64,000 bases of DNA from contig CAYUSN010000001.1 of assembly GCA_964447415.1 (NCBI GenBank), positions 33,735 to 97,734 on the forward strand, written 5' to 3'. Shown piece by piece: positions 5,498 to 64,000 of this stretch. The DNA comes from an uncultured Candidatus Saccharibacteria bacterium. Lineage in GTDB: Bacteria > Patescibacteriota > Minisyncoccia > Phycocordibacterales > EsbW-18. Each line of letters opens with the position of its first letter. Within the stretch, counting starts at the first letter, position 1. The notes under the pieces were generated by a model. It was not told the DNA's origin. It made no database searches and saw only the letters and a list, made by a program, of their open reading frames with translations. The position numbers and the translations under genes were made by a program.

Positions 5498-6367
5498 TTA
5501 GCCTTCGCACGCCCATCCATCACCGTCTCTGTCGAGCTTAAATTCATCGTATCCGAGAACCTGAACCTGTCCTGTGTAGTTTGGCCCATCGCCAGATCCA
5601 CCAGAACAATCGTAATCGCCTGCGTTTTGCTTCAAGCAACCGGAATAATTTGGATTACATTGCGACGATGCCTTTGCCGGCTTTGGAATTACAGGTGCTG
5701 GAGCTACAGGAATAGGGGCAGGTGCCTTCTCCTCTTCACATACCCCTGAAGCCCAGAGGCCCTTTTTGTTTATTTCTGCATTTTTTTGAGCAAGCTTAAA
5801 CTCATCCTGATATTTGTACGGGAGATCGTAAGTATATTCATATGCATATCCCTCTTTAATCATCAGAAGGTTAAAGTTGGTTCCATCTTCGAGAAAAACA
5901 TACCTAAGTAACCTGTCATATTTGTCCCTCTCTCCCTGGGTATTATCACTTTCCAAATATACATTCTTCCCCGTCAGTACTAGTTTTGCTTTATTAGAAG
6001 CTTCCGCACCGAAACACTCTACAGGCTTCCTAGGATCAACTGTTTCTGGAGTATCTATACCAATGAGCCTTAACCTTTCAACTTTCCCGTCGATAGAAAC
6101 GTCGATAGTATCTCCGTCCACCACCTTAACCACACCGTATGCCTGTTGGGTGAGTGTTTTTGGAGAGGTGCTCGTGGCTTCTGGAACAACGGAAGTCGTA
6201 ATATCCTCCAGCACCTCTGCTTGATTGTTTTCACGACCCCAATAACTAAACCAGCTAAATGGATTCCACCATACAGCCAGTGCTAATTGTGGGGCAAAAA
6301 TGCCAAGCGCTAGGATTAAAACGAGAACTCTCTTTAATTTTTCAGCACTCATGATTCCACGATACAC
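5498..6367 (-). CDS. secreted thermonuclease (SNase/micrococcal-nuclease fold) with C-terminal Excalibur Ca-binding domain
   Basis: 289 aa; signal peptide; 'GKVERLRLIGIDTPE' SNase core; C-terminal 'DCSGGSGDGPNY...DRDGDGWACE' Excalibur-type DxDxDGxxCE. Confidence 0.7.
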   Translation of the reverse strand: MYRGIMSAEKLKRVLVLILALGIFAPQLALAVWWNPFSWFSYWGRENNQAEVLEDITTSVVPEATSTSPKTLTQQAYGVVKVVDGDTIDVSIDGKVERLRLIGIDTPETVDPRKPVECFGAEASNKAKLVLTGKNVYLESDNTQGERDKYDRLLRYVFLEDGTNFNLLMIKEGYAYEYTYDLPYKYQDEFKLAQKNAEINKKGLWASGVCEEEKAPAPIPVAPAPVIPKPAKASSQCNPNYSGCLKQNAGDYDCSGGSGDGPNYTGQVQVLGYDEFKLDRDGDGWACEG

Positions 6368-6429
6368 CTGATAAACAGGAAAACAACAGGTATTGAAAAG
6401 TGTATATTTTTATGGGATAGTGCACTCAA

Positions 6430-7557: not shown

Positions 7558-7558
7558 T

Positions 7559-7603
7559 TTCCGAAAAAGTTCCGAAAAGTTCCGACTTCAATTCCGAAAG
7601 TGG
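7559..7603. repeat. tandem TTCCGA(A)AAG-type repeats (4 copies)
   Basis: tttCCGAAAAAGTTCCGAAAAGTTCCGActtcaaTTCCGAAAG between two ORFs; operator-like. Confidence 0.4.
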
Positions 7604-7644
7604 ACCCCTAAAATACAGATACTAAGTAGTCTGTTTTTTTATTT

Positions 7645-7896
7645 ATGCAGATGGAACATGAAAAGGACTTATACCGCGTATCTGATCTAGCGCTTGCATC
7701 AACTCTTTTATGCCTTGGGTGCAGGCTTTGGGCAACAGACCGTTCAGATGAGAGGAGGGTTTCCTTTGTCTTTGAGAGAAACGAGGGACTAGACGAAATA
7801 CTGGAGAATTACTGGACAGGCCAGCTCCGTGTGGAGCCCGTGGCCTTTTTTAGTGCTGTTAAACAGGCTAAAAACAGGATTTATAGCGAATATTAA
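7645..7896 (+). CDS. small phage-like hypothetical protein
   Basis: 83 aa; '...RVSFVFER...ENYWTGQLRVEP...KNRIY' resembles small phage proteins (DUF5659-like); weak. Confidence 0.3.
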   Translation: MQMEHEKDLYRVSDLALASTLLCLGCRLWATDRSDERRVSFVFERNEGLDEILENYWTGQLRVEPVAFFSAVKQAKNRIYSEY

Positions 7897-7900
7897 TCAA

Positions 7901-8116
7901 ATGCCCACCAGAGACGACATAACCAGGTTTCAGGAGCTTTACAGAGAGCATTTCGGAACCGAAATCAGCAGAAAAGAGGCCCTTGAGAAAGGTGCGGGGC
8001 TATTGCGGTTTATGTCGCTTATTTATAGACCAATGGGCAAAGACGAGTTGAAGATTGTTCAAAAGCAAAGAGCCAACACCCTCCATTTATTACAAGAACG
8101 GATTACTAATTTGTAG
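7901..8116 (+). CDS. small hypothetical protein (start moved to the internal ATG at 7901 of ORF 7829-8116)
   Basis: 71 aa beginning MPTRDDITRFQELYREHFGTEISRKEALEKGAG...; the upstream part of the tracked ORF overlaps the previous gene. Confidence 0.3.
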   Translation: MPTRDDITRFQELYREHFGTEISRKEALEKGAGLLRFMSLIYRPMGKDELKIVQKQRANTLHLLQERITNL

Positions 8117-8124
8117 AAACTAAT

Positions 8125-8358
8125 ATGCGTAGTATCGAACGGAGATTTAAAAACTTTCAAACAAAATCAGGAGGATTGAGCAGTTACATGAACTTTGCAC
8201 AAGCAATCTCCGGACAGGGATTCAGTGAGAATAATTTGAGTCGATGGTTCAACAAACTCGTAGAAAAAGATGACTACGATAAGAAAGATCGAAAACAGAT
8301 TATCAAGAATCTCGTACTCCTTTCAAAACCATCTGAGGAGCACCTGTTTGAGGTATAG
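8125..8358 (+). CDS. small hypothetical protein
   Basis: 77-aa ORF in a tightly packed same-strand run. Confidence 0.3.
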   Translation: MRSIERRFKNFQTKSGGLSSYMNFAQAISGQGFSENNLSRWFNKLVEKDDYDKKDRKQIIKNLVLLSKPSEEHLFEV

Positions 8359-8420
8359 GAAGCCACTCAGAAGAACGTTTTATCAGAGCGTGGAGGCAAT
8401 CATCATGAATATGAGAAAGT

Positions 8421-8855
8421 ATGAAAAAAGGATGGATTAAACAATACCGGAGGGATATAGATGACCTCAGAGATTTAACAGAGCCTGAGTATCGTTACTA
8501 CACACTCTCCTGCTTATTTGCTGTATGGGATACAAGAAATAAGCTTTTTGGAACGTTTGACGCACGAACAAAAACAATAAAAGCAGAGCTTCTTCCGAGC
8601 TGGTCTACTGGAAAAATCAACACAACAAAAAATCTCCTCATAAAAAGAGGTTTCTATAAAAAAGTTCCTGACAACCGACTACACATTACAAACGCGAGGA
8701 TTGTTTTTGGTAAGAGTAGGGATGTTGAAAATCTGGTTCAGAATTATGAAGGTAATATTCGTGTGGATGAAAAAGAGATTCAACAGGCTGAAAATCGCCT
8801 GAGTAGTATCGTGGATATGAAAAGGAATCTAGCAAATAGAAAGAGGGTTTCTTGA
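8421..8855 (+). CDS. hypothetical protein
   Basis: 144-aa ORF, basic. Confidence 0.35.
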   Translation: MKKGWIKQYRRDIDDLRDLTEPEYRYYTLSCLFAVWDTRNKLFGTFDARTKTIKAELLPSWSTGKINTTKNLLIKRGFYKKVPDNRLHITNARIVFGKSRDVENLVQNYEGNIRVDEKEIQQAENRLSSIVDMKRNLANRKRVS

Positions 8856-9008
8856 GATTGACATTCACATAACTGAAAACACCTCTCAAGTTAAAGAAAT
8901 ACAGAGAAATACAGAGAAATCTAAATAAACAAAAACCCCAGAAAGTAACTGCTTAACAGTTAAAAAACAGTGAGAGACAGGATGCCTTTTAAGAGATATA
9001 CTATCTAT

Positions 9009-9114
9009 GTTGACCCAAGCGCAGGCACAATCCGAAGTTTTTTTCTTACCTCGTTGCCCTAAAGGGGCGGTCTGCCAACGAGGCTACTCTTCGGAGCAAG
9101 CGCATTGGGTCAAC
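9009..9114. promoter_or_regulatory. ~106-nt nested imperfect palindrome 50-150 bp upstream of the serine recombinase gene (candidate recombination site or structured leader)
   Basis: GTTGACCCAAGCGCA (9009-9023) pairs with TGCGCATTGGGTCAAC (9100-9114); inner CCGAAG/CTTCGG and CCTCGTTG/CAACGAGG arms; apical CCCTAAAGGG. Confidence 0.45.
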
Positions 9115-9162
9115 CAGACCGTCCCTTTAGAGTTTCTGGGTTATTAGCCTTAATACACCCAT

Positions 9163-10782
9163 ATGAGTATTGATAAGAATCAACCAATCAAATACTTCCT
9201 GTATGCTCGGAAATCCTCGGAAAGTGAAGATCGACAGGTTCAGTCGATTGATGATCAGATAAACCGTCTTAAAGAACTGGCGAAGAACCTACATATTCCG
9301 ATAAAAGAAATCCTCACCGAGGCAAAGACCGCAAAGAAACCACACTGCAGACCGGTCTTTGCACAAATGCTCGAACGTATCGAGAAAGGTGAGGCCAGTG
9401 GAATCCTTTGTTGGCAAATAAACCGTCTCTCTAGAAATCCAATCGACAGCGGAAAGTTGGGATGGATGCTTCAGCAAAACATTTTACAGTCCATTCAAAC
9501 CATTGACCGTCAGTATCTCCCTGACGACAACGTACTCCTGTTCAGTGTAGAGAGTGGGATGGCGAACCAGTTCATTATCGATCTGCGCAAAAACAGCCGA
9601 AGAGGTATGGAAGGAAAAGCCGACCGAGGGTGGCTCCCCTCCCGAGCACCGTTGGGGTATTTGAATGACAAGCTGAAGAACACGATTGTTAAAGACCCTG
9701 AACGTTTCGATCTCGTACGAAAGATGTGGAATCTCATGCTTACAGGCAACTACACGCCATCTAAAATATGCGACATTGCAAACAAAGAGTGGGGTTTTCA
9801 GACATCGCAAACAAAGCGTAGTGGTGGAGGAGAACTTGCGCTTAGCGTTTTATACAAAACATTCGCAAACATTTTCTACACAGGAAAATTTGAATGGGCT
9901 GGAAGAGTTTACGAGGGCAACCATGAGCCAATGGTGAGCTTGGAGGAATACGACCGTGTACAGGTAATTCTTGGGCGTGAAGGTAAGCCACGATCTAAAA
10001 CGCACGACTTTGCATATACAGGACTCATGCGTTGTAGTACGTGCGGTTCAATGTTCACAGCAACTGAGAAAAAGAAGTTTATACAAAGCACCGGTGAGAT
10101 TAGAACCTACGTTTACTACCACTGCACCAGAAAAAACAAGAATGTGCGGTGTAACGAAAAGAGCATCACCCTTGAAGTGCTCGAGGGTCAAATTGAGGCT
10201 GAGCTAGAGAGATACGCAATACTTCCCCAATTCCAAGAGTGGGCTATTGAGATCCTTAACCGTGATAACGACAAAGAGATTCAAGAGAGAACCAAGATAT
10301 ACGAGGCACAGCACAAGGCAATCGTGGGCGCACAAAAAGAATTGGATTCACTAACTCAAATGCGGTACAGAGACCTTATCGACGATGAAACCTTCATTCG
10401 GGAACGTGACACCTTAAAAGAAAAAATATCGACACTCACCAACAATCTAAGAGAGACAGAAGATAGGAGTAAGAAATGGTTAGAACTTACTGAGAAAACA
10501 TTTAACTTTGCGTGCTACGCCCGTAAAGAGTTCCTTTTTGGAGACCTCAACAAGAAACGAGAGATCTTCTCGGCACTTGGCTCGAACTTTTCTGTAAAAG
10601 ACCAGAAAGTACGCATTGAAGCCAACGAATGGCTCGTACCTATCGAAAAAGCCTACCCAGAGCTAGAACTTGAGTACAATCGGCTCGAACTAGATAAAAC
10701 CCTTGATACAGCAACACGAAATGAACGTTTTGCTGAACTTATTCTCTCTTGGGGTGCCTACTGGGAATCGAACCCAGATTGA
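9163..10782 (+). CDS. large serine recombinase/integrase (resolvase catalytic domain + recombinase domain + Zn ribbon + coiled coil)
   Basis: 539 aa; 'YARKSSESEDRQVQSIDDQ' catalytic-Ser region; 'CSTCGS...YYHC' Zn-ribbon; the last 33 nt overlap tRNA-His on the opposite strand. Confidence 0.85.
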   Translation: MSIDKNQPIKYFLYARKSSESEDRQVQSIDDQINRLKELAKNLHIPIKEILTEAKTAKKPHCRPVFAQMLERIEKGEASGILCWQINRLSRNPIDSGKLGWMLQQNILQSIQTIDRQYLPDDNVLLFSVESGMANQFIIDLRKNSRRGMEGKADRGWLPSRAPLGYLNDKLKNTIVKDPERFDLVRKMWNLMLTGNYTPSKICDIANKEWGFQTSQTKRSGGGELALSVLYKTFANIFYTGKFEWAGRVYEGNHEPMVSLEEYDRVQVILGREGKPRSKTHDFAYTGLMRCSTCGSMFTATEKKKFIQSTGEIRTYVYYHCTRKNKNVRCNEKSITLEVLEGQIEAELERYAILPQFQEWAIEILNRDNDKEIQERTKIYEAQHKAIVGAQKELDSLTQMRYRDLIDDETFIRERDTLKEKISTLTNNLRETEDRSKKWLELTEKTFNFACYARKEFLFGDLNKKREIFSALGSNFSVKDQKVRIEANEWLVPIEKAYPELELEYNRLELDKTLDTATRNERFAELILSWGAYWESNPD

Positions 10783-10825
10783 GAGCTCCACAAGCTCCAG
10801 TGTTGACCGTTACACCATAGGCACC
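10750..10825 (-). tRNA. tRNA-His (anticodon GTG), with G-1 and genomically encoded CCA
   Basis: Manual cloverleaf: G-1 + GTGCCTA acceptor, D-stem GTGT/ACAC, anticodon loop TTGTGGA, T-loop TTCGATT, 3' ...TAGGCAC-C-CCA. Confidence 0.8.
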
Positions 10826-12719: not shown

Positions 12720-13442
12720 TTACGCCTCCTTCTTCAGAAGCTTCTCCGCCTCAATAAAATCCTCGGGAAGCGGCGCCTCAACGGTTTTTTCCTTCCCCGA
12801 CGGAAGCATGAGCGTCAGTGAGTAGGCATGGAGCGCGACGCGGTCAAAACCGAGTGCGGGACGCTGTTTGGGCGCATACAGTCCGTCGCAGACCACAGGA
12901 TGATTGATCGCTTTCATGTGCACGCGAATCTGATGAGTGCGGCCTGTCTTCGGATGCACCTCCAGATACGAATGTTCTTTTCCCCGCTCAAGCACGTGGT
13001 ATTCGGTAATCGCCTCCCGCATCACCCCCCTGGCGCCGCGTTGTGCGGACCAGAGCCGCGGATCAGTTGAACTTTTGCCGATAGGACGATTGATGATGTC
13101 TTTGTCTTTTGTGACGATACCGTACACAAACGTGCGGTAGATTTTTTTTGCTTCGCGCTCCTGAAACACCGATTTGAGATGCACGAATGCGTCTTCGTTT
13201 TTTGCGATCACCATGACGCCCGTCGTGTCGCCGTCGAGACGATGTACGATGCCGGGGCGCTCAACCGTCATGCCGTTTGAAAGCACCTGCGGTTCACCGA
13301 TACCCGCCGTCTCCGGATACTCCGCCGCCACCCAGTCGGCTACGGTCTGCTCGTCGGTTTTACCGTCGTCGTGCACCAACATACCTGAGGGCTTATTGAT
13401 AAACACCACGTCATTGTCCTCGTAGAGAATGGGGATGTTCAT
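12720..13442 (-). CDS. RluA-family 23S rRNA pseudouridine synthase (no S4 domain)
   Basis: 'HRLDGDTTGVMVIAKN' catalytic Asp motif; 240 aa. Confidence 0.8.
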   Translation of the reverse strand: MNIPILYEDNDVVFINKPSGMLVHDDGKTDEQTVADWVAAEYPETAGIGEPQVLSNGMTVERPGIVHRLDGDTTGVMVIAKNEDAFVHLKSVFQEREAKKIYRTFVYGIVTKDKDIINRPIGKSSTDPRLWSAQRGARGVMREAITEYHVLERGKEHSYLEVHPKTGRTHQIRVHMKAINHPVVCDGLYAPKQRPALGFDRVALHAYSLTLMLPSGKEKTVEAPLPEDFIEAEKLLKKEA

Positions 13443-53590: not shown

Positions 53591-55519
53591 TCAGAATTCT
53601 ATATCAAGCAATCCGCGGCCGCCTCCGGATGAGATCCATGTATCCGAGGGCGTCACGTCGTGTGTGAGTTCGGCGTCGATTTCCGTGAGAAACTGCGACG
53701 GCGCGTTTACCGACGGGGTGCCGAAAATGGTGCGGATAAGGGTATGGGTGAGATGCGCTTGTTTTTTCGCGCGGGTGAGCGCGACGTAAAATAACCGGCG
53801 TTCCTCCTCGCGTTCCTCCGGTGTTTCGCGCATTTCGCTCCGCTCGTCGGGAAACAGTCCTTCTTCAAGTCCGGTGATGAATACGTGTGCAAATTCAAGC
53901 CCTTTTGCCGCGTGGATGGTCATAAGCTTCACCGACTCCTCGTTGTTTTTGAGCGCATCCTGGTCGGATGCCAACAGCGCGTTTTCCAGAAATGAATGCA
54001 GTGCTTCATCCGATGGCAATGCGTCGTAGCGCAGTGCAATGGTTGCCAATTCGCGGACGTTATCGAGCCGCTCGTGGTCATCGTCGGTGCCCTGCGACAA
54101 ATCGTGTTCAATACCGGATTCTTTAACGACAAATTTTATGACGTCTGAGGGTTTGTGTGTGTGCGAAAAGTCGGCGATGCGTGACAGCAGGTTTCGGAAT
54201 GCGGTCACCTTCTCGCGCATTTTTGCAGGGAGCGTGTGTTCCTGTCCTGAGAGCACGCGCAGGAGCGTGGTTTTGCCGATACCGCGTGCAGGTACATTGA
54301 TGATGCGCGACACCGCGGTGGTGTTGTCCGGGTTGAGTGCCGCGACGATGTAGGAGAGTACGTCTTTCACTTCTTTGCGTTCAAAAAAACGCGTGCCGAG
54401 CATCTGGTAGGACACACGCGCATTGAGAAATGCCTCTTCAAGCGCGCGTGATTGAAAGTTTGCACGGAACAAAACCGCAATTTCCTGTGCGGGCACGCCT
54501 TCCTCGATAAGTTCCTGCGCGCGCGCCGCAACCCACTGCGCCTCGTCCGTTTCAGACGCTGCGGTGTAAATTTCTATCGGCTCCCCTGCATCTCCGGAGG
54601 TGAACAGATTTTTTTCTTTGCGTACTTCATTCTGCGCGATGGCGCGGTTTGCCGCGGTGAGAATGGTTTGTGTCGAGCGGTAATTTTCTTCAAGCGTGAC
54701 AACTTCGACATTGTGAAAATCTTCCTCGAATTTTGCCAAGTTGCGTATGTCGGCGCTGCGCCATGTGTAGATGCACTGGTCGTGATCACCTACGACACAG
54801 ATGTTTGAGTGTCCCGCGGCAAGCAGACGCGTGAGTTCATACTGCACGGTGTTGGTGTCCTGGTATTCGTCCACATGAATGTGCGACCAGCGATGTTGAT
54901 ATGCGCGCAGGATATCGGGATTTTTTTGAAGCAGTGTGAGTGTTGCAAGTAGCAAATCGTCGAAGTCGAATGCTTTTTCCTGCGCGAGCGCTTCCTGGTA
55001 GCGTTCCCACACAGGAACGGCCATACGTTCAAACGGTGTGTGTGCTTTTTCGCGGAATTCCGAAAGCAAACGCATTTCGTTTTTATTTTTTGAAATAACG
55101 GAGAGGAACGCTGACGGTGAGTGTTGTTTCGGATCCAATCCGACGTCTTTAAGGATGCGTTTGATAGTTGAGAGTGAGTCGTCGCGGTCAAAGATGGAGA
55201 AAAATTTCGGAATACCAAGCAGGCGGTGATTCTCACGGAGGATTTTGACACCAAGGGAGTGGAACGTGCCGATAAACGGCGACGGAGTCCCCGGCGGGAG
55301 CAGTTTGGCGACCCGATCGCGCATTTCCCCGGCTGCTTTGTTGGTAAACGTGATGGCGAGAATTTTTTCAGGTAGGACGCCGGAGTTGATGAGGTTGAGG
55401 ATGCGGTGCGTGATGACGCGCGTTTTGCCGGTTCCGGCGCCGGCGATGATAAGGAGCGGTCCGTCGCGGTGCTCCACCGCCTTTTTTTGTGCGGGATTGA
55501 GCCCGTCTGTGTGTGACAT
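53591..55519 (-). CDS. UvrD/PcrA/Rep-family superfamily-1 DNA helicase
   Basis: 'LIIAGAGTGKTRV' Walker A, 'HIHVDEYQDTN' Walker B, 'VFRANFQSR', and the C-terminal 'TIHAAKGLEF' motif. Confidence 0.85.
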   Translation of the reverse strand: MSHTDGLNPAQKKAVEHRDGPLLIIAGAGTGKTRVITHRILNLINSGVLPEKILAITFTNKAAGEMRDRVAKLLPPGTPSPFIGTFHSLGVKILRENHRLLGIPKFFSIFDRDDSLSTIKRILKDVGLDPKQHSPSAFLSVISKNKNEMRLLSEFREKAHTPFERMAVPVWERYQEALAQEKAFDFDDLLLATLTLLQKNPDILRAYQHRWSHIHVDEYQDTNTVQYELTRLLAAGHSNICVVGDHDQCIYTWRSADIRNLAKFEEDFHNVEVVTLEENYRSTQTILTAANRAIAQNEVRKEKNLFTSGDAGEPIEIYTAASETDEAQWVAARAQELIEEGVPAQEIAVLFRANFQSRALEEAFLNARVSYQMLGTRFFERKEVKDVLSYIVAALNPDNTTAVSRIINVPARGIGKTTLLRVLSGQEHTLPAKMREKVTAFRNLLSRIADFSHTHKPSDVIKFVVKESGIEHDLSQGTDDDHERLDNVRELATIALRYDALPSDEALHSFLENALLASDQDALKNNEESVKLMTIHAAKGLEFAHVFITGLEEGLFPDERSEMRETPEEREEERRLFYVALTRAKKQAHLTHTLIRTIFGTPSVNAPSQFLTEIDAELTHDVTPSDTWISSGGGRGLLDIEF

Positions 55520-55682
55520 AGTGAAAACACATCATAGCACGGGCGGTTTTTTGCATTTTTGAAGGCAAGGATGAAACAAAACAACCTTTTTATTTTTTGT
55601 CAATCTACAAAACATTACGTTCATCTGTCTTTCACAATGAAAACATCTTCGTTGTCAATAGTTTGGCGGTGTCAGAAAACAC

Positions 55683-55710
55683 AAAAAACGGCTCTACAGA
55701 GCCGTTTTTG
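55683..55710. terminator. orphan bidirectional stem-loop with flanking A-run and T-run inside a divergent intergenic region
   Basis: aaaaAACGGCTCT-aca-GAGCCGTTtttt. Confidence 0.5.
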
Positions 55711-55719
55711 ACATATCCC

Positions 55720-55860
55720 CTACGCTCGGAGTAGTCCACTTCTTTATTGCCCCTTTATCACCTGGGACGTAGAATTAAAGACGTTCCGAAACGAGAGAGT
55801 AAGCGCCCCTCCCCAAAAGAGAGGGGTCCACGCTTGAGACGGCGGCATTACAACCTAAAA
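55720..55860. ncRNA. candidate structured element (riboswitch or sRNA?) upstream of the LysM-M23 peptidase gene
   Basis: Three consecutive hairpins: CTAC-gctcgga-GTAG, GGGACGT-agaattaaag-ACGTTCC, CCCCTC-cccaaaaga-GAGGGG. Confidence 0.25.
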
Positions 55861-55921
55861 AAGGCATATAATACCTTCATATCGGGAAATCGGTTCCTCC
55901 ACTGCCCTTTTTGCGGGCCGG

Positions 55922-56929
55922 ATGAAAGATAAGATTCTCGCGAAACGCTTCTGGAAGCACGTTCTTTTTCGTTTCGCGGTCTCGGTGTTGCCCTTCGTCT
56001 CGTACGGCGGGCTTCTTGGTATGTACGGCGCGCTGCCCTCAGTCGGCGCCCAGGAGGAGTTCCCAAACGTACACCTAACCTCAATTTCTATGCCGCTGTT
56101 GCAGAGCACCGGAAACCCGAACCCGAAGCTTGCCGTTGCCTCACCTTCCAACATCGTTGCCGGTGTTGCGCTGGCGTCAGATAGCAATCCAATGGCCGAT
56201 GAAGCGCGAAAAGCGTCCTCGGACCAGATTTCCGTGTACGTTGTCCGTGAGGGTGACACGCTTTCTCAGATTGCCGACATGTTTGAAGTTTCAATCAACA
56301 CTATCCGCTGGGCCAATGACATGACCGGAAAATCAACAATCCGCCCCGGTCAGACGCTCGTGATTTTGCCCGTGACCGGCATCCGGCACGTGGTGAAGAA
56401 AGGCGACACCATCAAGAGTATTGCCAAAAAGTATAAGGGTGATGTGGGTGAGATTCTCTCCTACAACGGTTTCGAAGAGGACGTGCAGCTGACAATCGGA
56501 CAGGAGGTCATTGTGCCTGACGGAGAAATTGCCGCGCCGACAAGTAGTGGAGGCGGTGCACCGCGCTCATACGCCGGTCCGTCGTACGCCGGATACTACC
56601 TGCGCCCGGTTAACGGTACTCGTTCGCAGGGGTTGCATGGACACAACGGTGTTGATATTGCGGCACCTGCCGGATCGCCGATTTACGCAGCGGCGGCGGG
56701 AGAGGTTATCATCGCAAGCACGGGAGGATGGAACGGAGGGTACGGAAATTATGTCGTCGTGAAGCATAGCAACGGCACGCAGACGCTCTATGCGCACAAT
56801 TCAAGTAACGCGGTATCGGCAGGTCAGACGGTAGCGCAGGGAGATGTTATCGGGTACGTGGGGTCCACGGGACGCTCAACGGGATCACACGTGCACTTTG
56901 AAGTCCGTGGTGCGGCGAATCCGTTCTAG
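55922..56929 (+). CDS. LysM-domain (x2) + M23-family metallopeptidase (cell-wall hydrolase)
   Basis: Two 'Y.VR.GDTL..IA' LysM repeats; 'HNGVDIAAPAGSPIYAAAAGEV', 'GNYVVVKH', 'YAHNS', 'TGRSTGSHVHFEV' M23 motifs. Confidence 0.85.
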   Translation: MKDKILAKRFWKHVLFRFAVSVLPFVSYGGLLGMYGALPSVGAQEEFPNVHLTSISMPLLQSTGNPNPKLAVASPSNIVAGVALASDSNPMADEARKASSDQISVYVVREGDTLSQIADMFEVSINTIRWANDMTGKSTIRPGQTLVILPVTGIRHVVKKGDTIKSIAKKYKGDVGEILSYNGFEEDVQLTIGQEVIVPDGEIAAPTSSGGGAPRSYAGPSYAGYYLRPVNGTRSQGLHGHNGVDIAAPAGSPIYAAAAGEVIIASTGGWNGGYGNYVVVKHSNGTQTLYAHNSSNAVSAGQTVAQGDVIGYVGSTGRSTGSHVHFEVRGAANPF

Positions 56930-56991
56930 GAAAGGGCCGGTAGCATGTGGGGACACACGCTACGGGTTTTGATCTAGAAATGTCCAAACCT

Positions 56992-57018
56992 CAAAAAACA
57001 CCCTCACGGGTGTTTTTT
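56992..57018. terminator. bidirectional intrinsic terminator between the M23 peptidase gene and the comM remnant
   Basis: aaaaaACACCC-tcac-GGGTGTtttttg. Confidence 0.55.
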
Positions 57019-57035
57019 GCCTGAGGGGTGTTTTG

Positions 57036-57660
57036 TTATGCGAGCAATACTTTCGGGCGGTACTGGAGCGCTTCAAGAATATGCGGTGTGCCCACATCTT
57101 CGGCGTTTTCCAAATCGGCAATCGTGCGTGCAATTTTTATGACGCGGTGATAGCCGCGGGCGGAAAGCTCAAGCGCCCCCGCTGATTCATTGAGAAGCGT
57201 GCGTGTCTGCGTATCAAGCGGAACGAATGTGTCGAGGTCGCGCACCGACATCTCGCTGTTCTTCTTTTTTCCTGTGTCGCGCAGTCGTATCTCCTGTATG
57301 GCGCGCGCACGGATAACACGTGCGCGTATGTCTTCGCTCGTTTCTCCCGACGGTGCGCGTGACAGGGCTTCGTGTGCAACAGGCGCAACTTCCGTCCACA
57401 AATCAATACGATCCATCACAGGACCCGACATTTTTCGCTGGTATCGCGAAAGTATGTGCGGAGAACAGGTGCACGCACGAGCACTTCCCCACTTTCCGCA
57501 CGGACACGGATTAAATGCAACGACGGTAAGCGCGTCTGCGGGAAACAGCGCTGAACCTTTTGCGCGCGAAACCGAGACAATACGTTCTTCAAGCGGCTGA
57601 CGGAGCGCTTCGATAACACGACGGTCAAATTCGGGAAATTCGTCCAGTATTTCTGTCCCA
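57036..57660 (-). pseudogene. comM: comM/yifB (Mg-chelatase-like AAA+ competence protein) 3' fragment: Walker B through C-terminus only; the N-terminal ~285 aa are replaced by inserted AT-rich DNA
   Basis: 'GTEILDEFPEFDRRVIEALRQPLEE...AFNPCPCG...GPVMDRIDL...YHRVIKIARTIADL' matches the ComM C-terminal half; the tracked ORF's first ~30 aa derive from the AT-rich insert. Confidence 0.7.
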
Positions 57661-57701
57661 CAAACCTTTAGAAAAGATGTCAAAAAAGGTAAAATTACCC
57701 C

Positions 57702-59363
57702 ATGACAACCCATCCCCACGATGAAGCAGAAAGCCAACGAGCTAAACACACGAGCGACATTTTGGGGTCTAAATCCGAGAAAATTGTTGTAGTTGCTGGG
57801 CCTGGAACAGGTAAAACTTTCCTTTTCAGTAAAATCCTTGAGGGCAAAACAGGAGGCAACACACTGACCCTCTCCTTCATAAATGCCCTCGTAGATGATT
57901 TGTCCCTCGGCTTATGTGGTCTTTCAGAAGTAAAGACCTTGCATGGATTCTCGATGTCTACCTTAAATGGAGCTGGCAAGACAAAGATTAAGATTTTTCC
58001 AAAACTTTGTGAGGTCATTAAAAAAGACGCAGAAATGCTCTTAGGAAAGAAAGTGGATTTTGAAAAAATGTTCCAAACAGGAGAAGCAGACGAAGATCTT
58101 ATTACCTTTTACAAAAAAAGAAAAGACTCATATGGCTCTTTTTATGGATTCTCAGACGCTGTTTATGCAGTTGTGAAGTATATGGAAGCGTACCCAGATA
58201 AGATTCCTGCCTTTGCTCAGATTGTTGTCGATGAATTCCAGGATTTCAATAAGATAGAAGTAAGCCTTATTGAACTACTTGCCTCAAAGAGTCCAATTGT
58301 GATTGCTGGGGATGATGACCAGTCTTTATATGTCGATTTAAAGAGTGCTAGTCCAGAATTTATTAGGGAGATTCATGGGCCAAAGCGTCCTGAGTATGAA
58401 TCTTTTAATTTGCCTTTTTGCTCTCGTTCTACGCAGGTAATCGTAGAAGCAATAAACGATGTAACGAGCAAAGCAAAAGAGAATGGCCTGTTGGATGGAC
58501 GGGTCGAGAAACCATATCAATACTTCACTTGTAAGGATAAAGATAAGGAAAGCACAGCAAATCCAAAAATAGTTCACGCACAGGTATTTGAAAAAGCCGT
58601 GCCGCAGTTCATTCAAAGCGAAATGTGCGAAATTGCAAAAACCGAGCGCAAGAAAGTAAGTGTCCTGGTCATTATCCCTCCCCAACTTAAGAGTCGTTTA
58701 TTACCTTACTACTCGAAGAAGCTCAAAGAGAAAGGATTTAAAAATATTGCCAGTGTTGATTCATCTTCAAATAAGGGATTAACACTCATGGATGCTCTCC
58801 ATCTCTTATTAGATGATAATAAATGTGAACTCGCTTGGCGCATCGTTGCACAGACTCTACTAGACGAAAAAGACTTCAAGACCCTATTAGAAACAACGAA
58901 TAGTGGTAAAAAAGTATCAGAACTTCTATCAAAAGATATAAAAAAGCAGGTAAATGAGTATGTGCAGTGCCTTAAAAAGATTCGTGACGAAAAGGAATGC
59001 GATACCGAGAAACTTGACGAACTATTTAAAGCAATAGGGATTGACCCACTTCAAATCGCATCCGAAAAAATCAAAGAAGAAATTCAAAGTAAGGATTGGA
59101 ACGGAACCAGCAGGAGAGAAATTAAAGAAATGGATATTGCAGTGACTACAATACCTAGTTCAAAAGGACTAGCGGCAGATTATGTTTTTATTACCCACTT
59201 TGACCAACCTTACTTTTCTCAAAAAGGAAAAGTGACTGATGGAGATGTATATAACTTCCTGGTCGCGCTCACTCGCGCTCGTAAGAAGGCATATTTGATT
59301 TCTACTCAAGAGAAGAATCGCCCCACAATCTTGGATTGGATAGATAAAGACCGTATCCAATAG
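57702..59363 (+). CDS. UvrD-like SF1 helicase (compact, 553 aa) carried on the inserted element
   Basis: 'VVVAGPGTGKTFL' Walker A, 'IVVDEFQDFN' Walker B, and the C-terminal 'SSKGLAADYVFI' motif VI-like. Confidence 0.7.
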   Translation: MTTHPHDEAESQRAKHTSDILGSKSEKIVVVAGPGTGKTFLFSKILEGKTGGNTLTLSFINALVDDLSLGLCGLSEVKTLHGFSMSTLNGAGKTKIKIFPKLCEVIKKDAEMLLGKKVDFEKMFQTGEADEDLITFYKKRKDSYGSFYGFSDAVYAVVKYMEAYPDKIPAFAQIVVDEFQDFNKIEVSLIELLASKSPIVIAGDDDQSLYVDLKSASPEFIREIHGPKRPEYESFNLPFCSRSTQVIVEAINDVTSKAKENGLLDGRVEKPYQYFTCKDKDKESTANPKIVHAQVFEKAVPQFIQSEMCEIAKTERKKVSVLVIIPPQLKSRLLPYYSKKLKEKGFKNIASVDSSSNKGLTLMDALHLLLDDNKCELAWRIVAQTLLDEKDFKTLLETTNSGKKVSELLSKDIKKQVNEYVQCLKKIRDEKECDTEKLDELFKAIGIDPLQIASEKIKEEIQSKDWNGTSRREIKEMDIAVTTIPSSKGLAADYVFITHFDQPYFSQKGKVTDGDVYNFLVALTRARKKAYLISTQEKNRPTILDWIDKDRIQ

Positions 59364-59401
59364 ATTCCCCAGTATCGTCCCTCTGAGAGTGTTGTGGGAA
59401 C

Positions 59402-61154
59402 TTACACACCTCCTTTTGTGTGGTACATGCCTGGATTAGCAACAAGTAAATCACGGCTTCGCTCGTGCTGGCTCAATGTTTTGATGTGCAAAATAAGTCT
59501 CATGTTGTCCTGCTGTGAAACAGGCTCGATGTGTTTATCACTCATTACACGTGTCGAAACGGGAAACCTAAAGAATACCTCTGCATAGTTCTTCTTAGGG
59601 AATAGGTTAATCCTCTCAATGAACAGACGGAGTATGTATTGCTTGTCCTCGTAGCTGACATTTTCCAGTCTCGTCTTGATTTGCTCATACAATTTTTTAA
59701 GCACGACCCCTCTGTCTTTCCGTTCGTCACGTTTAATGAGTACCTGTTCAAATTTAGCTTTCTGATTCTCCATTGCTTCAATGTTCTCGTTACACTCCCT
59801 CAAGTGTTGTTCACACTCTTTCTCTGGAAGACTCTTAAACATGAAAGCTCTGGTAATCCGAGCACGTTGTTCTAGGAGTGATTTGATTTGCTTTTCACAC
59901 TGAGCAATCTTCTCCTTTGCCTTGTCTGCATTTGAATTCTTGAATGTGTACTCTTCCAGTTTTGGTATCACATTCTCAGGGTCTTTAAGTATGGAAACGA
60001 GACACTCCCAAATCGGCTCGAGTCGTGTCTCGGCGTACTGGTATCGCACAAATTTATTCTCTGGATTATTCGCGTTCTCTAACATATGTGTGATAGTACT
60101 TTCCTAGTGTTCGTGAATCCTTTCCAATTTTTGGGGTTTGATACCCACTCTGCAACTTGTTACCTGTCTCTCCACAATAAAGGAGTGTTGAATACAGGTA
60201 TGGTCTCTTGGTGTTTCGCTTTGAGTTCTCTCGATTCTTTTTGAGTTGTTGGATTGAAGCCTGAAACATCTCCTTGCTAATAATCTGCGGAACTTTAATC
60301 GGTATCCACTCTTCCTCTGGTCTCTGATGTTCTTCTTCCAGTACAGCGTCAAGATACTTAAATGGCCTCTTGTACTTTCTGTAGTAGAAGTCGCCCGTGT
60401 ATACCTCGTTAACTAACAGCCGATTTATGCTCCGCTTCCACCAGTAGTTAAACGTCTTTCGTTTCTTCTGTGTGTTGTGCTTCGGAGCTGGCATTTCCAA
60501 TTGGTTTGCTCGCTTTGTGATTTCAGTGAGTGAGCAACGCTCGTACACAAGCCAGTGATAGAACTGCTTCACGACCTCAGCTTCCTCTGGGATGATGTGT
60601 AGTTGCTTTGTTTTCTTATCTACCTTGTAGCCATAGGGAGGAACTCCTGTGACCCACTTGTTGTCTCGTGCGGCCTGTTCACGTCCTCCACTCATTCGTT
60701 CCCTAATAACTTCTCGTTCAAGCTCCGCTAGGCTTCCCAGCATTTGAAGAACAAACCTACCGTTTGGGGTACTGGTATCGAATGATTCAGTACATGACTT
60801 AAATTCAATGCCCAACTCAAGAAGTTTCTCTACGGCGTCCAGAAGCTTTCTCGTGCTTCTAAAGAATCTGTCGAGACGATAGACGATGACGATATCGAAT
60901 TTCTTAGCTTTTGCATCCTCGAACAACTGCTTCAATCCCTCACGTTTCTCGATAGCAAGTGAACCTGACTTTCCCTCGTCTCCATAAGTGAGTATCGTTT
61001 CGTTGTCATAGATATCTGGCTGGCTCTCGCAGAACTTTTGTAGTCGTTCTTTTTGTACCTTGATTCCATACTTGTCGTCCTTTGCCTGCTCATCAGTAGA
61101 GACTCGCGTGTATAGTGCAACCCTCTTCTTTTGTATTTTTAATTCACTTTGCAT
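59402..61154 (-). pseudogene. large serine recombinase split by a frameshift (ORFs 61154-60066 and 60085-59402) with degenerate Zn-ribbon ligands
   Basis: N-terminal 'VALYTRVSTDEQ' resolvase domain + recombinase domain; the Zn ribbon reads CGETG...YYHT (Cys lost); the coiled-coil tail continues in another frame with a 20-nt overlap. Confidence 0.55.
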
Positions 61155-61576
61155 GGCTTTTTGTTTCCACGTTCAAACTCCACTAAGAGCCGGCCCGCGA
61201 CCTCAGTGAATTTGCCGACCATGTCTAATGTTTCTGTTGCCGACATCAAAACCACGTTATGGTTTTGTAATATCTCCATGAGCTTACACATCTGTTGAGT
61301 ATCACGATAGATTCTGTCCAACCTGTAGACTGCTAGGATGTCGAACTTTCCTTGCCCAATATCTTTTAGGAGTCGATTTAGTGCAGGTCTATGTGTTGCA
61401 GGTAGAGAACCTGAATATGCCCGGTCTACATATGTGTTTTCTTCTTTGACCTGTAAGTTTTGCGCTTCACAGGATTCAAGAACAGTTGCCTTTTGGACAT
61501 CCACTCCGTTGCGTTGCCAATCGGTAGACGTTCGTAGGTATATAGCTACTCTCTTGTTCGTTTGTTCTTTTTTCAT
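61139..61576 (-). CDS. small serine recombinase (resolvase catalytic domain only, no HTH)
   Basis: 145 aa; 'VAIYLRTSTDWQ...', 'ILAVYRLDRIYRD', 'GVVLMSATE'. Confidence 0.75.
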   Translation of the reverse strand: MKKEQTNKRVAIYLRTSTDWQRNGVDVQKATVLESCEAQNLQVKEENTYVDRAYSGSLPATHRPALNRLLKDIGQGKFDILAVYRLDRIYRDTQQMCKLMEILQNHNVVLMSATETLDMVGKFTEVAGRLLVEFERGNKKPCKVN

Positions 61577-61722
61577 AATTTTATGTTTGTGAACCTCACT
61601 ACCAGTCGTCCGTTTTTATTTTTGACATTGAACTTCTTAGTCTTTGGAAACCCTGCATTATTGAGCAGGTCTCGTACAAAGCTTTCTGGGGTGAATTTCT
61701 TAGTTTTGGTTTGTTTTTTCAT
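61573..61722 (-). CDS. 49-aa lysine-rich basic protein, stop overlapping the resolvase ATG (ATGA); candidate recombination directionality factor or DNA-binding accessory protein
   Basis: MKKQTKTKKFTPESFVRDLLNNAGFPKTKKFNVKNKNGRLVVRFTNIKL; not in the ORF track (<60 aa). Confidence 0.4.
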   Translation of the reverse strand: MKKQTKTKKFTPESFVRDLLNNAGFPKTKKFNVKNKNGRLVVRFTNIKL

Positions 61723-62037
61723 ATTCCTATAAAATGGCTTAGGTAAGCCGTTTATAGGACATATTAGATAAGGTAGTTACAACTATGTACAGGTGTCCTG
61801 TCTATAAGCCCTTCTGTGATTCGCGCGCGTAGTTTTCAATTTCTCCTTCTGGAAGGAAAAACAAACTATCTGCTACATGGCTCATTTCAAACTACATTTC
61901 CAGCAAACAAACCATTTTGTAATTTATTTTTTGTTAATAATCTATCTATTGTCTGAACCACCATGAGTACACTTTTCCGCATTCTGCATGAATCAAATCT
62001 ATCCAACTTTGAATCACCATGATTCACGCAAGTGTAC

Positions 62038-62742
62038 TTATAGAGATATCCTTGGCCCTTCTTGGTCTTTCTGCCTCTGCACATATGCCACCAAGCTTGC
62101 CCACTTCCTTTCCAAATCTACTGGTGAGCCAATCACTGGTGCATACTTCTTTCCATTTGTGACTCCCACAAGAGATATCGCTTGCTCCACCATATCCACT
62201 CCATAATGCTTAATGAGTTTTTCTATTGCTCGCACCTGTCTTTTTTCTTCCTTAAACTCATCCGTCTTGTGGTGTGCAATCAACCTAAACATCTCAATCA
62301 TCCTCTCCGCCTCCGTAGTCAATGACACCTTAACGTCCTCCGCCTCGCCCTCGACCGCTTCCGCAAGGACCAAGCTAATGTCATTTGTTTTGTATTTTGA
62401 CCTGTGAACCACGATGAATCCTTTTTCTTCGAGAGCTTTTAATGCTCTTGGAACTTGTGCCTTGCTTACGCCCGCTCCCTTGTTCCTTTCCCCGATACCT
62501 GACACAAACTGGCTAATGCTAATTTTGTCCCTCGTTTTTAAGTAGCCGTATGTGTTCCGAAGAATGAAGTCCAGACACTTTTGTTCGGCTCCGCTAAGTG
62601 AATGCCACCATGACTCAAGAATTGTTGGATACTTGAAGAAGTCCCTCTTGTACTCCTTTTTGAATCCGGGGAATCTCTTATTCTGTTCATGGTTGTTATT
62701 TGTCATGCGCTCCGTTCTTGAGATCTCCTGGAAAGGGTTCAA
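62038..62742 (-). CDS. winged-HTH DNA-binding protein, putative replication-initiation/replisome-organiser-like
   Basis: 'SLSGAEQKCLDFILRNTYGY...ISISQFVSGIGERNKGAGVSKAQVPRALKALEEKGFIVV' wHTH pattern. Confidence 0.4.
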   Translation of the reverse strand: MNPFQEISRTERMTNNNHEQNKRFPGFKKEYKRDFFKYPTILESWWHSLSGAEQKCLDFILRNTYGYLKTRDKISISQFVSGIGERNKGAGVSKAQVPRALKALEEKGFIVVHRSKYKTNDISLVLAEAVEGEAEDVKVSLTTEAERMIEMFRLIAHHKTDEFKEEKRQVRAIEKLIKHYGVDMVEQAISLVGVTNGKKYAPVIGSPVDLERKWASLVAYVQRQKDQEGPRISL

Positions 62743-62900
62743 TCCAATGTTCTTTAAATGGTCTTTCTCCTCTCACTATCTGTCCGTGCATGACAGGATT
62801 CTTTCGCTCTAGCCAACGCATGAACTTGTCTTTTCTTGGCTCAATCCAACGGCTTCTCTCCAACCAGTCCTCTGGTAGTGTCTCTTTTAGTTTTCCCATG

Positions 62901-63221
62901 CTATTTCTGGTTAGAATCAATAATTGCTTTCAAGGTTTGCTTCTGAGCGTCAACCGCAAAACACTTTCGCAAATGTTCCCAATACTCTGCTTGTCTCCGC
63001 ATGGAATTTGCAATTTGCGCCATCCGAGTGTTTGCCAACAGGTAGTTGCCTTGCTCCATTTCACTGATATTGAGCTTGATAGCCCCAACCCACTTTTCTG
63101 TAACCTCACCGAGAACATCAAGTCCGTGTTGACTCTGTTCAATCAAAGTCTCTTGGTAGCACTTGTCGAACTCCACCTTTGTTGGGTCGAGCGTTATTGT
63201 TATCTTGTTCGTTTTCTCCAT
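62901..63221 (-). CDS. hypothetical protein (phage-like)
   Basis: Start taken at MEKTNKITITLD; overlaps an alternative-frame ORF 63139-63435, so there may be a frameshift. Confidence 0.3.
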   Translation of the reverse strand: MEKTNKITITLDPTKVEFDKCYQETLIEQSQHGLDVLGEVTEKWVGAIKLNISEMEQGNYLLANTRMAQIANSMRRQAEYWEHLRKCFAVDAQKQTLKAIIDSNQK

Positions 63222-63489
63222 GGCTTTGTTTGTTATGATTTTGTAATTTAACAGGGGTGTTGAGAATAAAATCAAAGAGTAACGACCACATTGTCTCGTT
63301 TTCGACAACGCCACCTTCATTTGTTTTTGCATTACACTCCCGCATGTTCCTATAAAAACAAAGCAGGATTTCCTCCGCTGGAAATTCTTTTTTTACTCCA
63401 GTGGATAAACCAAAAGACCCAGTTTTAATAAGCAAAATGAAAACACCCCTTTTGAGTGTGGTGTTAAAATATTTCGTGTTTAACTCCAG

Positions 63490-64000
63490 TTAATCTTTCA
63501 CAGTAAGGAGCACTTCGTTTCTTGTGCAGGTCAGAGACATGTCATAGCCCTCTCTCGTTAAGTTTTTTACAACACCCCTGATTCTGGCCATAAGAGAATC
63601 AGTTTTATTTTTACCCCTTAATTCGTCAATACTCACTACGAGTCCAGCATTTTTAGTAAACAAATCAAAACGCACTCCATTCCCCGCCTTGAGCACTTTG
63701 CCATTTTGTAAGTGTCGTCTGTTACCCCATAGTTCTTCAAAAATCCGCAAGGTAGCAGTTTTATTTCTATATTTTTCTCCACGAAATTCGTGAGTCGGTA
63801 GCCCATCCTTCTTAAGTGTTTTTGTATCTAAACGATACGCTGTCTTTCCAGACACTTCCTCCTCTTTATTTTTTTGCCCCGTGCTCTTTGTGGAGTATGT
63901 GTCTATAAAATTTGTAAGTCTTTCAAAATCCAGAACCTTAACTGGGAAGAACTTTTCAAAAGTTGCAGTATTCCCCTCATCATCAATTTCTGCAAAGTCC
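63490..64000 (-). CDS. hypothetical protein, partial (frame stays open to the window edge; the tracked start at 63855 is actually GTG in-frame)
   Basis: The reverse-complement frame reads ...DFAEIDDEGNTATFEKFFPVKVLDFERL...EEEVSGKTAYRLDTK... with no stop up to position 64000. Confidence 0.35.
   Translation of the reverse strand, partial: DFAEIDDEGNTATFEKFFPVKVLDFERLTNFIDTYSTKSTGQKNKEEEVSGKTAYRLDTKTLKKDGLPTHEFRGEKYRNKTATLRIFEELWGNRRHLQNGKVLKAGNGVRFDLFTKNAGLVVSIDELRGKNKTDSLMARIRGVVKNLTREGYDMSLTCTRNEVLLTVKD

Follow-up and report, generated by a model that had tools for sequence, protein, structure and literature searches.

The DNA analysed here is a 64,000-nt window of contig CAYUSN010000001.1 from an uncultured Candidatus Saccharibacteria bacterium. 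Towards its right-hand end, the gene comM is interrupted by a mobile element of 10,694 bp. The minus-strand open reading frame (ORF) 57036-57749 covers only positions 108-205 of the 207-position Pfam Mg_chelatase profile, followed by the entire Mg_chelatase_C domain. The GC content is 0.56 at 57200-57599 and 0.39 at 57800-58199, and stays at approximately 0.40 up to the end of the window, as compared to 0.51 in the host part. The gene is cut at window position 57,646/57,647, between the codons for ...AHRGILFL and DEFPEF, and the CT at the cut opens the Leu codon CTG, which is read from the minus strand. A preliminary description of the stretch, prepared from the letters alone, had proposed that a mobile element interrupts comM, which both junctions and the restored reading frame bear out. 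The abrupt drop in GC was also seen correctly, but the boundary was placed at ~57,660, about 14 bases from its exact position. Similarly, a C-terminal remnant of ComM is present as described, but it consists of 203 residues and not of ~210 starting from 'ILDEFPEF': the 'I' of this motif and all upstream residues of the ORF are read-through into the element arm.

The remainder of the element and the other part of comM were found in public assemblies. A protein look-up retrieved the Logan contig L001 (SRR14787577, 10,752 b), which is the reverse of window 57,618-64,000 with 100% identity and extends 4,370 b further. A second look-up with a window-encoded 143-aa protein retrieved contigs L183 (SRR14787579) and L182 (SRR14787578), 14.7 and 15.2 kb long, which run through the whole element and across its two junctions, and share 8,684 b (55,317-64,000) with the window at 100% identity. 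A search for the ComM N-fragment by means of the read-through tail peptide gave no candidates. Window numbering continued on the public contigs identical to the window is referred to as extended coordinates. In L183, a host gene is followed by the comM N-fragment, then by the element and the comM C-fragment, and finally by the LysM/M23 peptidase gene that is also present in the window. The N-fragment, with a 336-aa product containing ChlI and Mg_chelatase domains, is located just beyond the left attachment junction (attL), at ~68,340 in extended coordinates. Thus, the far element end and the 5' half of comM lie beyond 64 kb, as had been predicted, and the earlier lower bound of 6.3 kb for the element is replaced by its measured size. 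The element has a GC content of 0.40, compared with 0.54 in its flanks, and window positions 57,648-64,000 hold its right-hand 6.35 kb.

In silico removal of the 10,694 b between the crossover cores (together with one core copy) restores an open comM of 511 codons, reading ...TLAHRGILFLDEFPEFDRR... The rejoined 511-aa ComM matches the profile TIGR00368 (YifB/ComM) with 546 bits at a cut-off of 362, over profile positions 3-499 of 499. Uninterrupted comM genes, which the preliminary description had suggested looking for in relatives, are common: among the 120 best homologue clusters, 67 continue across the site.

Attachment sites and the attP array

The left junction reads ...CAC CGC GGC ATT CTA TTC CT/AATAGCTGTCCTACA..., and the right junction ...TTTGTGGGACAGAAATA/CT GGAC GAA TTT CCC... 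The attachment sites of the integrated element are attL, ...ATTCTATTC-CT-AATAGCTGTCC, and attR, ...GGGACAGAAATA-CT-GGACGAATTT, which have only the 2-bp CT in common. The target-site duplication sought in the preliminary description is absent, and none is to be expected, because the mechanism is conservative serine recombination at a 2-bp core. The ends of the element are mirror images of each other, with GGTTTGTGGGACAGAAATA before the core and AATAGCTGTCCTACAtACC after it, and form a dyad in which 14 of 20 positions match. Reconstruction of the circular form yields a used element site (attP) of approximately 42 bp, TTTGTGGGACA-N6-CT-N6-TGTCCyACAAA. The reconstructed attP occurs intact in L009, a Candidatus Paceibacterota metagenome-assembled genome, at positions 13,375-13,412 (GGTTTGTGGGACAGAAATACTAATAGCTGTCCTACA).

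Imperfect dyad half-sites, a 2-bp non-palindromic core, hybrid junctions, and the lack of a duplication are the signature of large serine recombinases (LSRs) (PMC3783163, PMC3642061). The dyad ends, the hybrid attL and attR with only CT in common, and the missing duplication therefore indicate LSR integration and not AbaR/Tn7-like transposition. As judged from the DNA sequence, it is highly probable that an LSR integrated the element into the Walker B codons of comM at the CT core. In the proposed mechanism, the element would exist as a circular form carrying attP, which the LSR would bring into synapsis with the host site (attB) in comM, ...GGC ATT CTA TTC CTG GAC GAA TTT... The recombinase would cut both sites at the central CT, the half-sites would rotate, and religation would produce attL and attR, each composed of one host half and one element half, without a duplication. 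Exact excision would restore comM, and the RepO-like initiator and UvrD-like helicase of the element would enable plasmid-like replication of the excised form. Catalysis is probably provided by the LSR encoded in the element, with its two chains assembling into one enzyme.

The elements in L001, which is that of the window, and L009 are circular permutations of each other. The L009 element is integrated via CAATTGTGGGACAAAGGCA-TT-AGAGACTGTCCCACAAAAA and its CT site is intact. The window element is integrated via CT and contains an intact TT site at L001 411-444 and an intact AT site at L001 128-161; the AT and TT sites are located 99 and 382 bp inside its left end, beyond the window. A scan for the pattern TTGTGGGACA-N6-NN-N6-TGTCCCACAA with up to five mismatches detected approximately 20 unique sites in 233 kb of family loci. 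Only weak matches occurred in the control sets of unrelated recombinase loci (one in 1.14 Mb, two in 1.30 Mb), and the 57.6 kb of host DNA in the window contained no match. There are two to four attP-like sites per element, with the cores CT, TT, and AT and a weak GT, and no core is repeated within one element. The sites are arranged in the order CT-(AT)-TT in most elements, the LSRs of which are 50-97% identical, and as CT-TT-AT in L007.

The core used for integration corresponds to the codon occupied in the host. The CT core was used at the host codon CTG by the window element and that of L002, at CTC by L010, and at CTT by L091, and each of these four elements has intact extra AT and TT sites; CT was also used at CTA by L179, which has an intact extra TT site. 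The TT core was used at TTG by L009, in which CT, AT, and a weak GT site are intact, and at TTA by L006, L014, and L176, each with an intact extra CT site. The AT core was used at ATG by the element of L007 (the same as L097), where CT and TT are intact. Every attP core corresponds to the start of a codon for a hydrophobic residue. The Walker B aspartate of intact ComM homologues is preceded by leucine in 65, methionine in 7, valine in 1, and cysteine in 1. The reciprocal use of CT and TT, together with the use of AT in a third lineage, shows at the level of the compared elements that several of the array sites are real crossover sites.

Serine recombinases such as those of Bxb1 and phiC31 form products only if the central dinucleotides of attP and attB match, whereas the recognition of the sites is indifferent to the core (PMC3642061, PMC3936721). 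Because religation requires matching central dinucleotides, the array most likely supplies a core-matched site for each comM allele. We lean towards the interpretation that the arrays are sets of alternative crossover sites that accommodate different codons in the target (Leu CTN/TTR, Met ATG, Val GTN). One enzyme would then use all the sites of an array, and the choice among them would be made by core matching. If so, the array would widen the host range of the element across Patescibacteria in spite of the core-matching rule. In the literature that we searched, which was not complete, neither a natural multi-core attP array nor a split zinc-free LSR was described, and serine recombinases that target comM were not reported from the candidate phyla radiation.

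A GC-rich block, CCCGCGCGCGTACACGCGTACGAG...ACGTTAAC...CGTTA, is positioned between the CT and AT sites at L183 1640-1740. Equivalents are present in L002, L010, and L091, and the block is conserved among elements with recombinases that are only 64-81% identical.

Element genes and the two-part recombinase

The features of the right-hand part of the element are listed in Table 1. The preliminary description had named a UvrD-like helicase, tandem serine recombinases, and a rep-like gene, all of which are present, but it missed the ORF encoding the C-terminal part of the recombinase.

Table 1. Features of the comM junction and of the element part inside the window (window coordinates)
Feature	Position	Strand	Properties
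comM 3' fragment	57036..57647	-	Leu codon before the Walker B Asp to stop; 203 codons + stop
attR crossover (central) dinucleotide CT	57646..57647	-	sole sequence common to attL and attR
Element-side half of used attP, GGTTTGTGGGACAGAAATA	57648..57666	-	mirror half AATAGCTGTCCTACA at the other element end
UvrD-like superfamily 1 (SF1) helicase, 553 aa	57702..59363	+	Pfam UvrD-helicase, AAA_19, UvrD_C; phrog_1967 DNA helicase
Recombinase C-terminal piece, 227 aa	59402..60085	-	phrog_95 integrase positions 419-572; aligns to residues ~360-583 of the L005 LSR
Recombinase N-terminal piece, 362 aa	60066..61154	-	Pfam Resolvase 3.3e-39 (PF00239), Recombinase 1.3e-16 (PF07508)
Small protein with resolvase catalytic domain only, 145 aa	61139..61576	-	Pfam Resolvase 2.8e-23; overlaps the recombinase start
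Replication-initiator-like protein, RepO-like winged helix	62038..62742	-	Pfam Phage_rep_O 1e-7; PHROG replication-initiation O-like families
Two small conserved hypothetical core genes, 67 aa and 143 aa	62696..63332	-	called in L183 and L001
3' part of a conserved hypothetical gene, 264 aa, running off the window end	63490..64000	-	L001 4086-4880 = window 63490-64284

The recombinase of the element is encoded in two ORFs, the second of which is in the +1 frame and shares 20 nt with the first, at a conserved CAYACNTATGT. The first ORF ends with ...YYHTYVRERE*, and the second begins at an ATG inside ACATATGT. The 362-aa N-terminal piece contains the catalytic serine motif YTRVSTDEQ, followed by VYRLDRFFR, and its PF07508 domain spans residues 189-307; XisF, CcrB, and CcrC are its best NCBIfam matches. 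The cysteines of the zinc ribbon are missing. The first CxxC is replaced by CGETG and the second by FVRY, the gene is broken between them, and neither piece matches PF13408 (Zn_ribbon_recom) in Pfam. The one-piece relatives in L005 (583 aa) and L007 (611 aa) retain both CxxC pairs. According to an AlphaFold model (mean predicted local distance difference test score 70.6), the 227-aa C-terminal piece contains a long helical hairpin formed by helices 53-82 and 88-119. The piece probably comprises a zinc-ribbon remnant, a putative coiled coil, and a C-terminal beta domain.

The same split is present in L006 (64% DNA identity), L009, L010, L089, and L091. Furthermore, all 24 homologue clusters of the C-terminal piece, with identities of 47-98%, are stand-alone ORFs of 210-251 aa without the zinc-ribbon cysteines or internal stops. 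Between the window and L009 copies, the ratio of non-synonymous to synonymous substitution rates (dN/dS) is 0.027 for the N-terminal and 0.07 for the C-terminal piece, values that clearly point to purifying selection on both. Among 1.84 billion representatives, the split clade falls into a single 50% cluster. The fused metagenomic protein P0145 (598 aa) is closest to it; this protein has already lost the zinc-ribbon cysteines and scores 295 bits against the profile of the C-terminal piece, and the next neighbours are fused and have kept them. Since the fused P0145 is already without these cysteines, the loss of zinc binding probably preceded the split, and P0145 is a plausible intermediate between the canonical and split forms. 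The recombinase may be a naturally split, zinc-free LSR that acts as two chains.

Programmed frameshifting was considered as a means of joining the two ORFs and appears less likely: there is no conserved slippery sequence, and a stop in the +1 frame is located 18 nt upstream of the ATG. The conserved ATG of the second ORF favours separate or coupled translation over a frameshift. The 145-aa protein encoded next to the recombinase retains the motifs YLRTST and VYRLDRIYR, and a similar tandem, of 165 aa and 611 aa, is present in L007. It is considered accessory because L009, the LSR of which is 97% identical, has no such ORF.

The 553-aa helicase is possibly the replication helicase of the element. 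It is GajB-like in PADLOC (E 1.6e-20); however, a Gabija system was rejected, as PADLOC detected no GajA in the element and the helicase has no partner gene. The 67-aa and 143-aa core genes have no match to Pfam, PADLOC, or PHROG families. The 264-aa gene is also present in L002, and hypothetical ORFs of 256-265 aa occupy the matching position in L009, L089, L091, and L179. The cargo, outside the window at L001 508-2835, includes a match to PADLOC REase_II (HincII family, E 1.9e-91) and an adjoining MTase_II (E 4e-190), which together constitute a cognate type II restriction-modification pair of a HincII-type nuclease and an Eco57I-like methylase. In PHROGs, the only families matched by the element are those of integrases, helicases, replication initiators, and methyltransferases. 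No TnsA/B/C, TniA/B/C, capsid, terminase, or tail match was found among its genes in Pfam, PADLOC, or PHROGs, and a comparison of its DNA with 72,556 plasmid and 50,697 phage (INPHARED) records gave no match. The element is integrative and plasmid-like, and is neither a phage nor a transposon.

The element also carries an Rfam LOOT RNA (RF03000) at L183 4891-5008 (~64,971-65,088 in extended coordinates, outside the window). Full-length matches of 67-91 bits, compared with a gathering score of 46.4, were obtained for the element and for seven of the eight related elements tested; the loci with the RNA are L183, L002, L006, L007, L009, L091, L176, and L179. The RNA is always located just upstream of a conserved hypothetical gene of ~115-220 aa, on the strand of the rep and recombinase genes. 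To our knowledge, LOOT RNA has been known from environmental sequence only, with no assigned function or context. It is entered in Rfam as a small RNA, and here acquires a defined genomic home as a conserved component of the elements.

The comM-targeting family and its mobility

The best homologues of the ComM C-fragment all belong to Patescibacteria, namely Nomurabacteria, Paceibacterota, Yonathbacteria, Doudnabacteria, and Adlerbacteria, and many of them are ORFs of ~205-220 aa that start just before LDEFPEF. In 12 of the 120 best clusters, the signature C[GER]T-x-x-[LM]DEFPEF corresponds to the element arm TGTGGGACA read in frame, and approximately 30 more start within five residues of the site.

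A recombinase-profile scan of GTDB species representatives identified six loci with an LSR at least 50% identical to that of the window: two in Paceibacterota, one in a complete Kaiserbacteria chromosome, one in Nomurabacteria, and two in unclassified Patescibacteria. Pieces of comM flank all six, and none of the loci L015-L021, in which the identity is 33-43%. In L022 (Bacillota, LSR 34% identical), comM is uninterrupted and located beside the LSR gene. Eight further metagenomic contexts are also in comM. In total, fifteen distinct related loci were found, all of them in Patescibacteria and all in comM. The preliminary description had regarded the choice of the same target in a distant lineage as notable. 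The target was identified correctly, but the element is one member of a large family that occurs throughout Patescibacteria and is specialised on this codon, and not a one-off convergence. A metagenome scan with the LSR profile returned mostly generic serine recombinases and only two family members, and the same scan of IMG/VR returned no relative closer than 45%.

The replication modules of the family are either RepO-like or of the Prim-Pol/PriCT/AAA_25 type. Most of the cargo is related to defence and comprises restriction-modification systems (type II and type III-like), CBASS (CD-NTase and Cap15), and genes with SduA_C (Shedu-type) and Abi_C domains. The element of L179 carries an exonuclease VII pair. 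The host gene order comM, LysM/M23 peptidase, PcrA/UvrD (window 53591-57036; L002, L089, L176) is kept at 47-61% ComM identity, and can aid recognition of the empty locus.

Three loci differ in their element arms. In L013 (3871-14656), the recombinase gene and comM have opposite orientations, and an apparent AG core is flanked by the arms GGTCGG(C/T)TTG(G/C)AAAG. L011 (complete Kaiserbacteria chromosome, position 12489) and L096 (position 2998) lack the GGGACA motif. The three loci possibly represent sub-families that use the same codon but differ in specificity. Another locus, L008 (GCA_034680565.1), was rejected as a family member, as it has only an extra T in the run CTTTTTTTTGGAT and no insertion. 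Its comM is split at 8280-8310 into ORFs of 322 and 209 aa at the same LFL/DE codons, which is due to a sequencing error or a natural frameshift. Because L008 is a frameshift, short ComM-C ORFs cannot be counted naively, and the arm read-through signature was used instead.

Closely related elements occupy the same codon in dissimilar hosts. In L002-L004 (SRR29109021-23), the element core is 98.7% identical to that of the window over 7.5 kb, whereas the C-terminal half of the host ComM is 61% identical. In place of the HincII and Eco57I-like methylase pair, L002-L004 carry a cassette of a Dcm-type methylase and a MutH-like nuclease. The defence cassette is swapped (L001 446-3256 versus L002 358-2569) between elements that are otherwise 95-99% identical. 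L009 represents a third host, with 55% ComM identity and a 97% identical recombinase.

Contigs of sample SRR14787577 end at the junctions. The host contig L093 stops exactly at window position 57,647, and the element contig has exactly 30 nt (28 nt + CT) in common with either comM flank, whereas the contigs of SRR14787578 and SRR14787579 read straight through. Logan assemblies are built with k=31. If this value applies, the 30-nt overlaps and the host contig ending at CT imply a branch of the assembly graph at both junctions. The sample therefore probably holds an alternative continuation, most simply an empty attB.

A second AT-rich island, with a GC content of 0.37-0.42, is located at the left end of the window (1-10,824). 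It encodes a one-piece 539-aa LSR with a zinc-ribbon domain at 9163-10782 (+), the 3' end of which overlaps tRNA-His at 10750-10824 (-). Among its cargo genes are those for a SocA/Panacea antitoxin-like protein at 2514-3017, a secreted SNase-type nuclease at 5498-6367, and an APH-family kinase at 205-1221. No repeat of the tRNA-His was found within the window, and the other end of the island is therefore probably upstream of base 1.

Alternative explanations and comparison with known systems

It could be argued that the junction is an assembly chimera or that the 203-aa ComM C-terminal ORF is a natural stand-alone gene, both of which the preliminary description had raised as doubts. Databases hold many short ComM-C ORFs, and the split in L008 is a poly-T frameshift without an insertion. 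However, the junctions are identical across three independent sample assemblies, and the N-terminal half of comM has the same orientation, is exactly one element length away, and joins in frame to a full-length ComM that matches TIGR00368 from end to end. The fragment is therefore neither a naturally short ORF nor a product of chimeric assembly, and we assign this explanation a negligible probability. The observation on comM is thus confirmed, and its earlier interpretation is supported as essentially right. An AbaR-like (Tn7/Tn6022-type) transposon or a prophage targeting comM as in Acinetobacter is similarly very improbable. It would agree with the position of comM as a known hot spot of Tn7-like AbaR islands and other defence-carrying elements (PMC11472951), and with the UvrD-like helicase and phage-type RepO domain of the element, but neither transposition nor virion genes were matched among the element genes, attL and attR have 2 bp in common instead of a 5-bp duplication, and there is neither a DNA match in phage or plasmid records nor a close LSR relative in IMG/VR. 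Both candidates were rejected, as the element has no virion or packaging genes, no TniA/TniB/TniC-type genes, and no duplication. The two recombinase ORFs lie in different frames, their overlap falls exactly at the second CxxC of the one-piece relatives, and Pfam detects no Zn_ribbon_recom domain, as would be the case for a decaying frameshifted pseudogene in an island that is stranded or moved only in trans. We consider such decay improbable, as at least 24 clusters, with identities as low as 47%, have kept the split without internal stops, dN/dS is 0.03-0.07 between copies in different hosts, three hosts whose ComM proteins are 55-61% identical carry the element with 97-99% identity, and the existence of a fused relative without the zinc-ribbon cysteines suggests that the loss of zinc binding came before the split and was tolerated. 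Several observations nevertheless weigh against integration by a functional two-chain LSR. The four zinc ligands of the domain with which canonical LSRs read the outer att motif are missing and the protein is split at that place, so that activity is not guaranteed, and the match of the C-terminal piece to solved LSRs is weak (E 0.05 for the profile against A118-type 4kis/6dnw over the hairpin region, Foldseek E 0.15). No recombination directionality factor was identified in the element, which also has no conjugation or capsid genes. Exact-match searches gave no matches for the host attB (GGCATTCTATTCCTGGACGAATTTCC) in JGI metagenome contigs or for the CT attP in IMG/VR. Furthermore, the graph-branch argument for an empty site is indirect, and the arm motif is not universal, as L011, L013, and L096 have different element arms.

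The additional attP-like sites may be accessory, architectural binding sites, like sites II and III of res, or leftovers of piled-up elements. The extra sites are clustered beside the used site, and the conserved GC-rich block between two of them could indicate a larger nucleoprotein assembly. On the other hand, every site has crossover geometry, with 14 bp between the arms and the core in the centre. CT and TT are each used by elements with 97% identical LSRs (window and L009), and AT is used in L007. The cores are CT, TT, AT, and GT only, are never duplicated within an element, and mirror the L, M, and V found at the target residue. The site order is conserved in most elements, so the array was inherited as a unit and not accreted. 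We therefore regard accessory or leftover sites as unlikely, although they deserve more consideration than the alternatives discussed above, and prefer alternative crossover sites matched to the target codon.

ComM drives branch migration in natural transformation. The ComM of the integrated locus is expected to be inactive, because the gene is cut between the Walker A and Walker B motifs. Loss of ComM should therefore lower the integration of heterologous DNA and so hinder the removal of the element by transformation. This effect of ComM loss on the transformation-mediated removal of elements has been argued previously (PMC11472951). The element would thus benefit from disabling the gene that it occupies. 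That unrelated elements in unrelated phyla hit comM supports a benefit of ComM disabling for chromosomal parasites, which is especially relevant in small-genome bacteria thought to depend on DNA uptake. Moreover, the comM elements are a major vehicle of defence genes in Patescibacteria, including restriction-modification, CBASS, and Shedu- and Abi-type domains, and they account for many of the truncated ORFs of ~205-220 aa that metagenome annotations list as 'Mg chelatase'. If our interpretation of the arrays is right, they explain the broad host range of an element that targets a codon and represent a natural way round the core-matching limit. The system would also provide genome engineering with existing sets of orthogonal sites and with a compact zinc-free integrase made of two chains.

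In Acinetobacter, comM is a hot spot for Tn7-like AbaR islands and other defence-carrying elements, and the gene is also inactivated in Aggregatibacter and Pasteurellaceae (PMC11472951). The AbaR/AbGRI islands of A. baumannii (Tn6022-family, Tn7-like) interrupt the same gene in the same Mg-chelatase ATPase domain and inactivate ComM, with the same likely consequence of less recombination of incoming DNA. Their cargo often includes defence systems such as CBASS, as in the present family (PMC11472951). The parallel to AbaR drawn in the preliminary description is therefore valid for the target gene but not for the mechanism, which is conservative serine recombination at a 2-bp core without Tn7-like genes. 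AbaR islands move by TniC/TniA-type transposition with target duplication, whereas the exchange at the 2-bp core of the present element is conservative and exactly reversible. The hosts also differ, Acinetobacter in one case and Patescibacteria in the other.

The element resembles other gene-splitting LSR elements, such as the Listeria phages A118/phi10403S in comK, Bacillus SPbeta (SprA) in spsM, skin (SpoIVCA) in sigK, and the Anabaena fdxN element (XisF), in its intragenic attB, in its imperfect dyad att sites around a central dinucleotide, and in that excision repairs the host gene precisely (PMC3556126, PMC5499854). SPbeta and A118 are prophages, each with one attP and an integrase that binds zinc and is encoded in one piece, whereas the present element is non-viral and has a split zinc-free LSR and an attP array. 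The recombinases of skin and fdxN are also one-piece proteins, in contrast to the two ORFs described here. SCCmec, which is inserted by CcrAB/CcrC into rlmH/orfX, is likewise a non-phage, non-conjugative island with tandem serine recombinases, a single, conserved housekeeping target, and variable cargo. However, CcrA and CcrB are both full-length LSRs, and the site at the 3' end of rlmH leaves that gene active, whereas comM is inactivated. Composite SCC repeats are hybrid junctions of serial insertion, unlike the present arrays, which consist of intact dyad attP sites with different cores. The element thus deviates from a defining feature of LSRs, the one-piece zinc-ribbon domain, and adds an attP array. 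The orthogonal att sites engineered for phiC31 and Bxb1 follow the same core-matching principle, but they are laboratory constructs (PMC3936721, PMC3642061), whereas the core set found here (CT, TT, AT, and perhaps GT) is apparently natural, inherited, and matched to the target codons.

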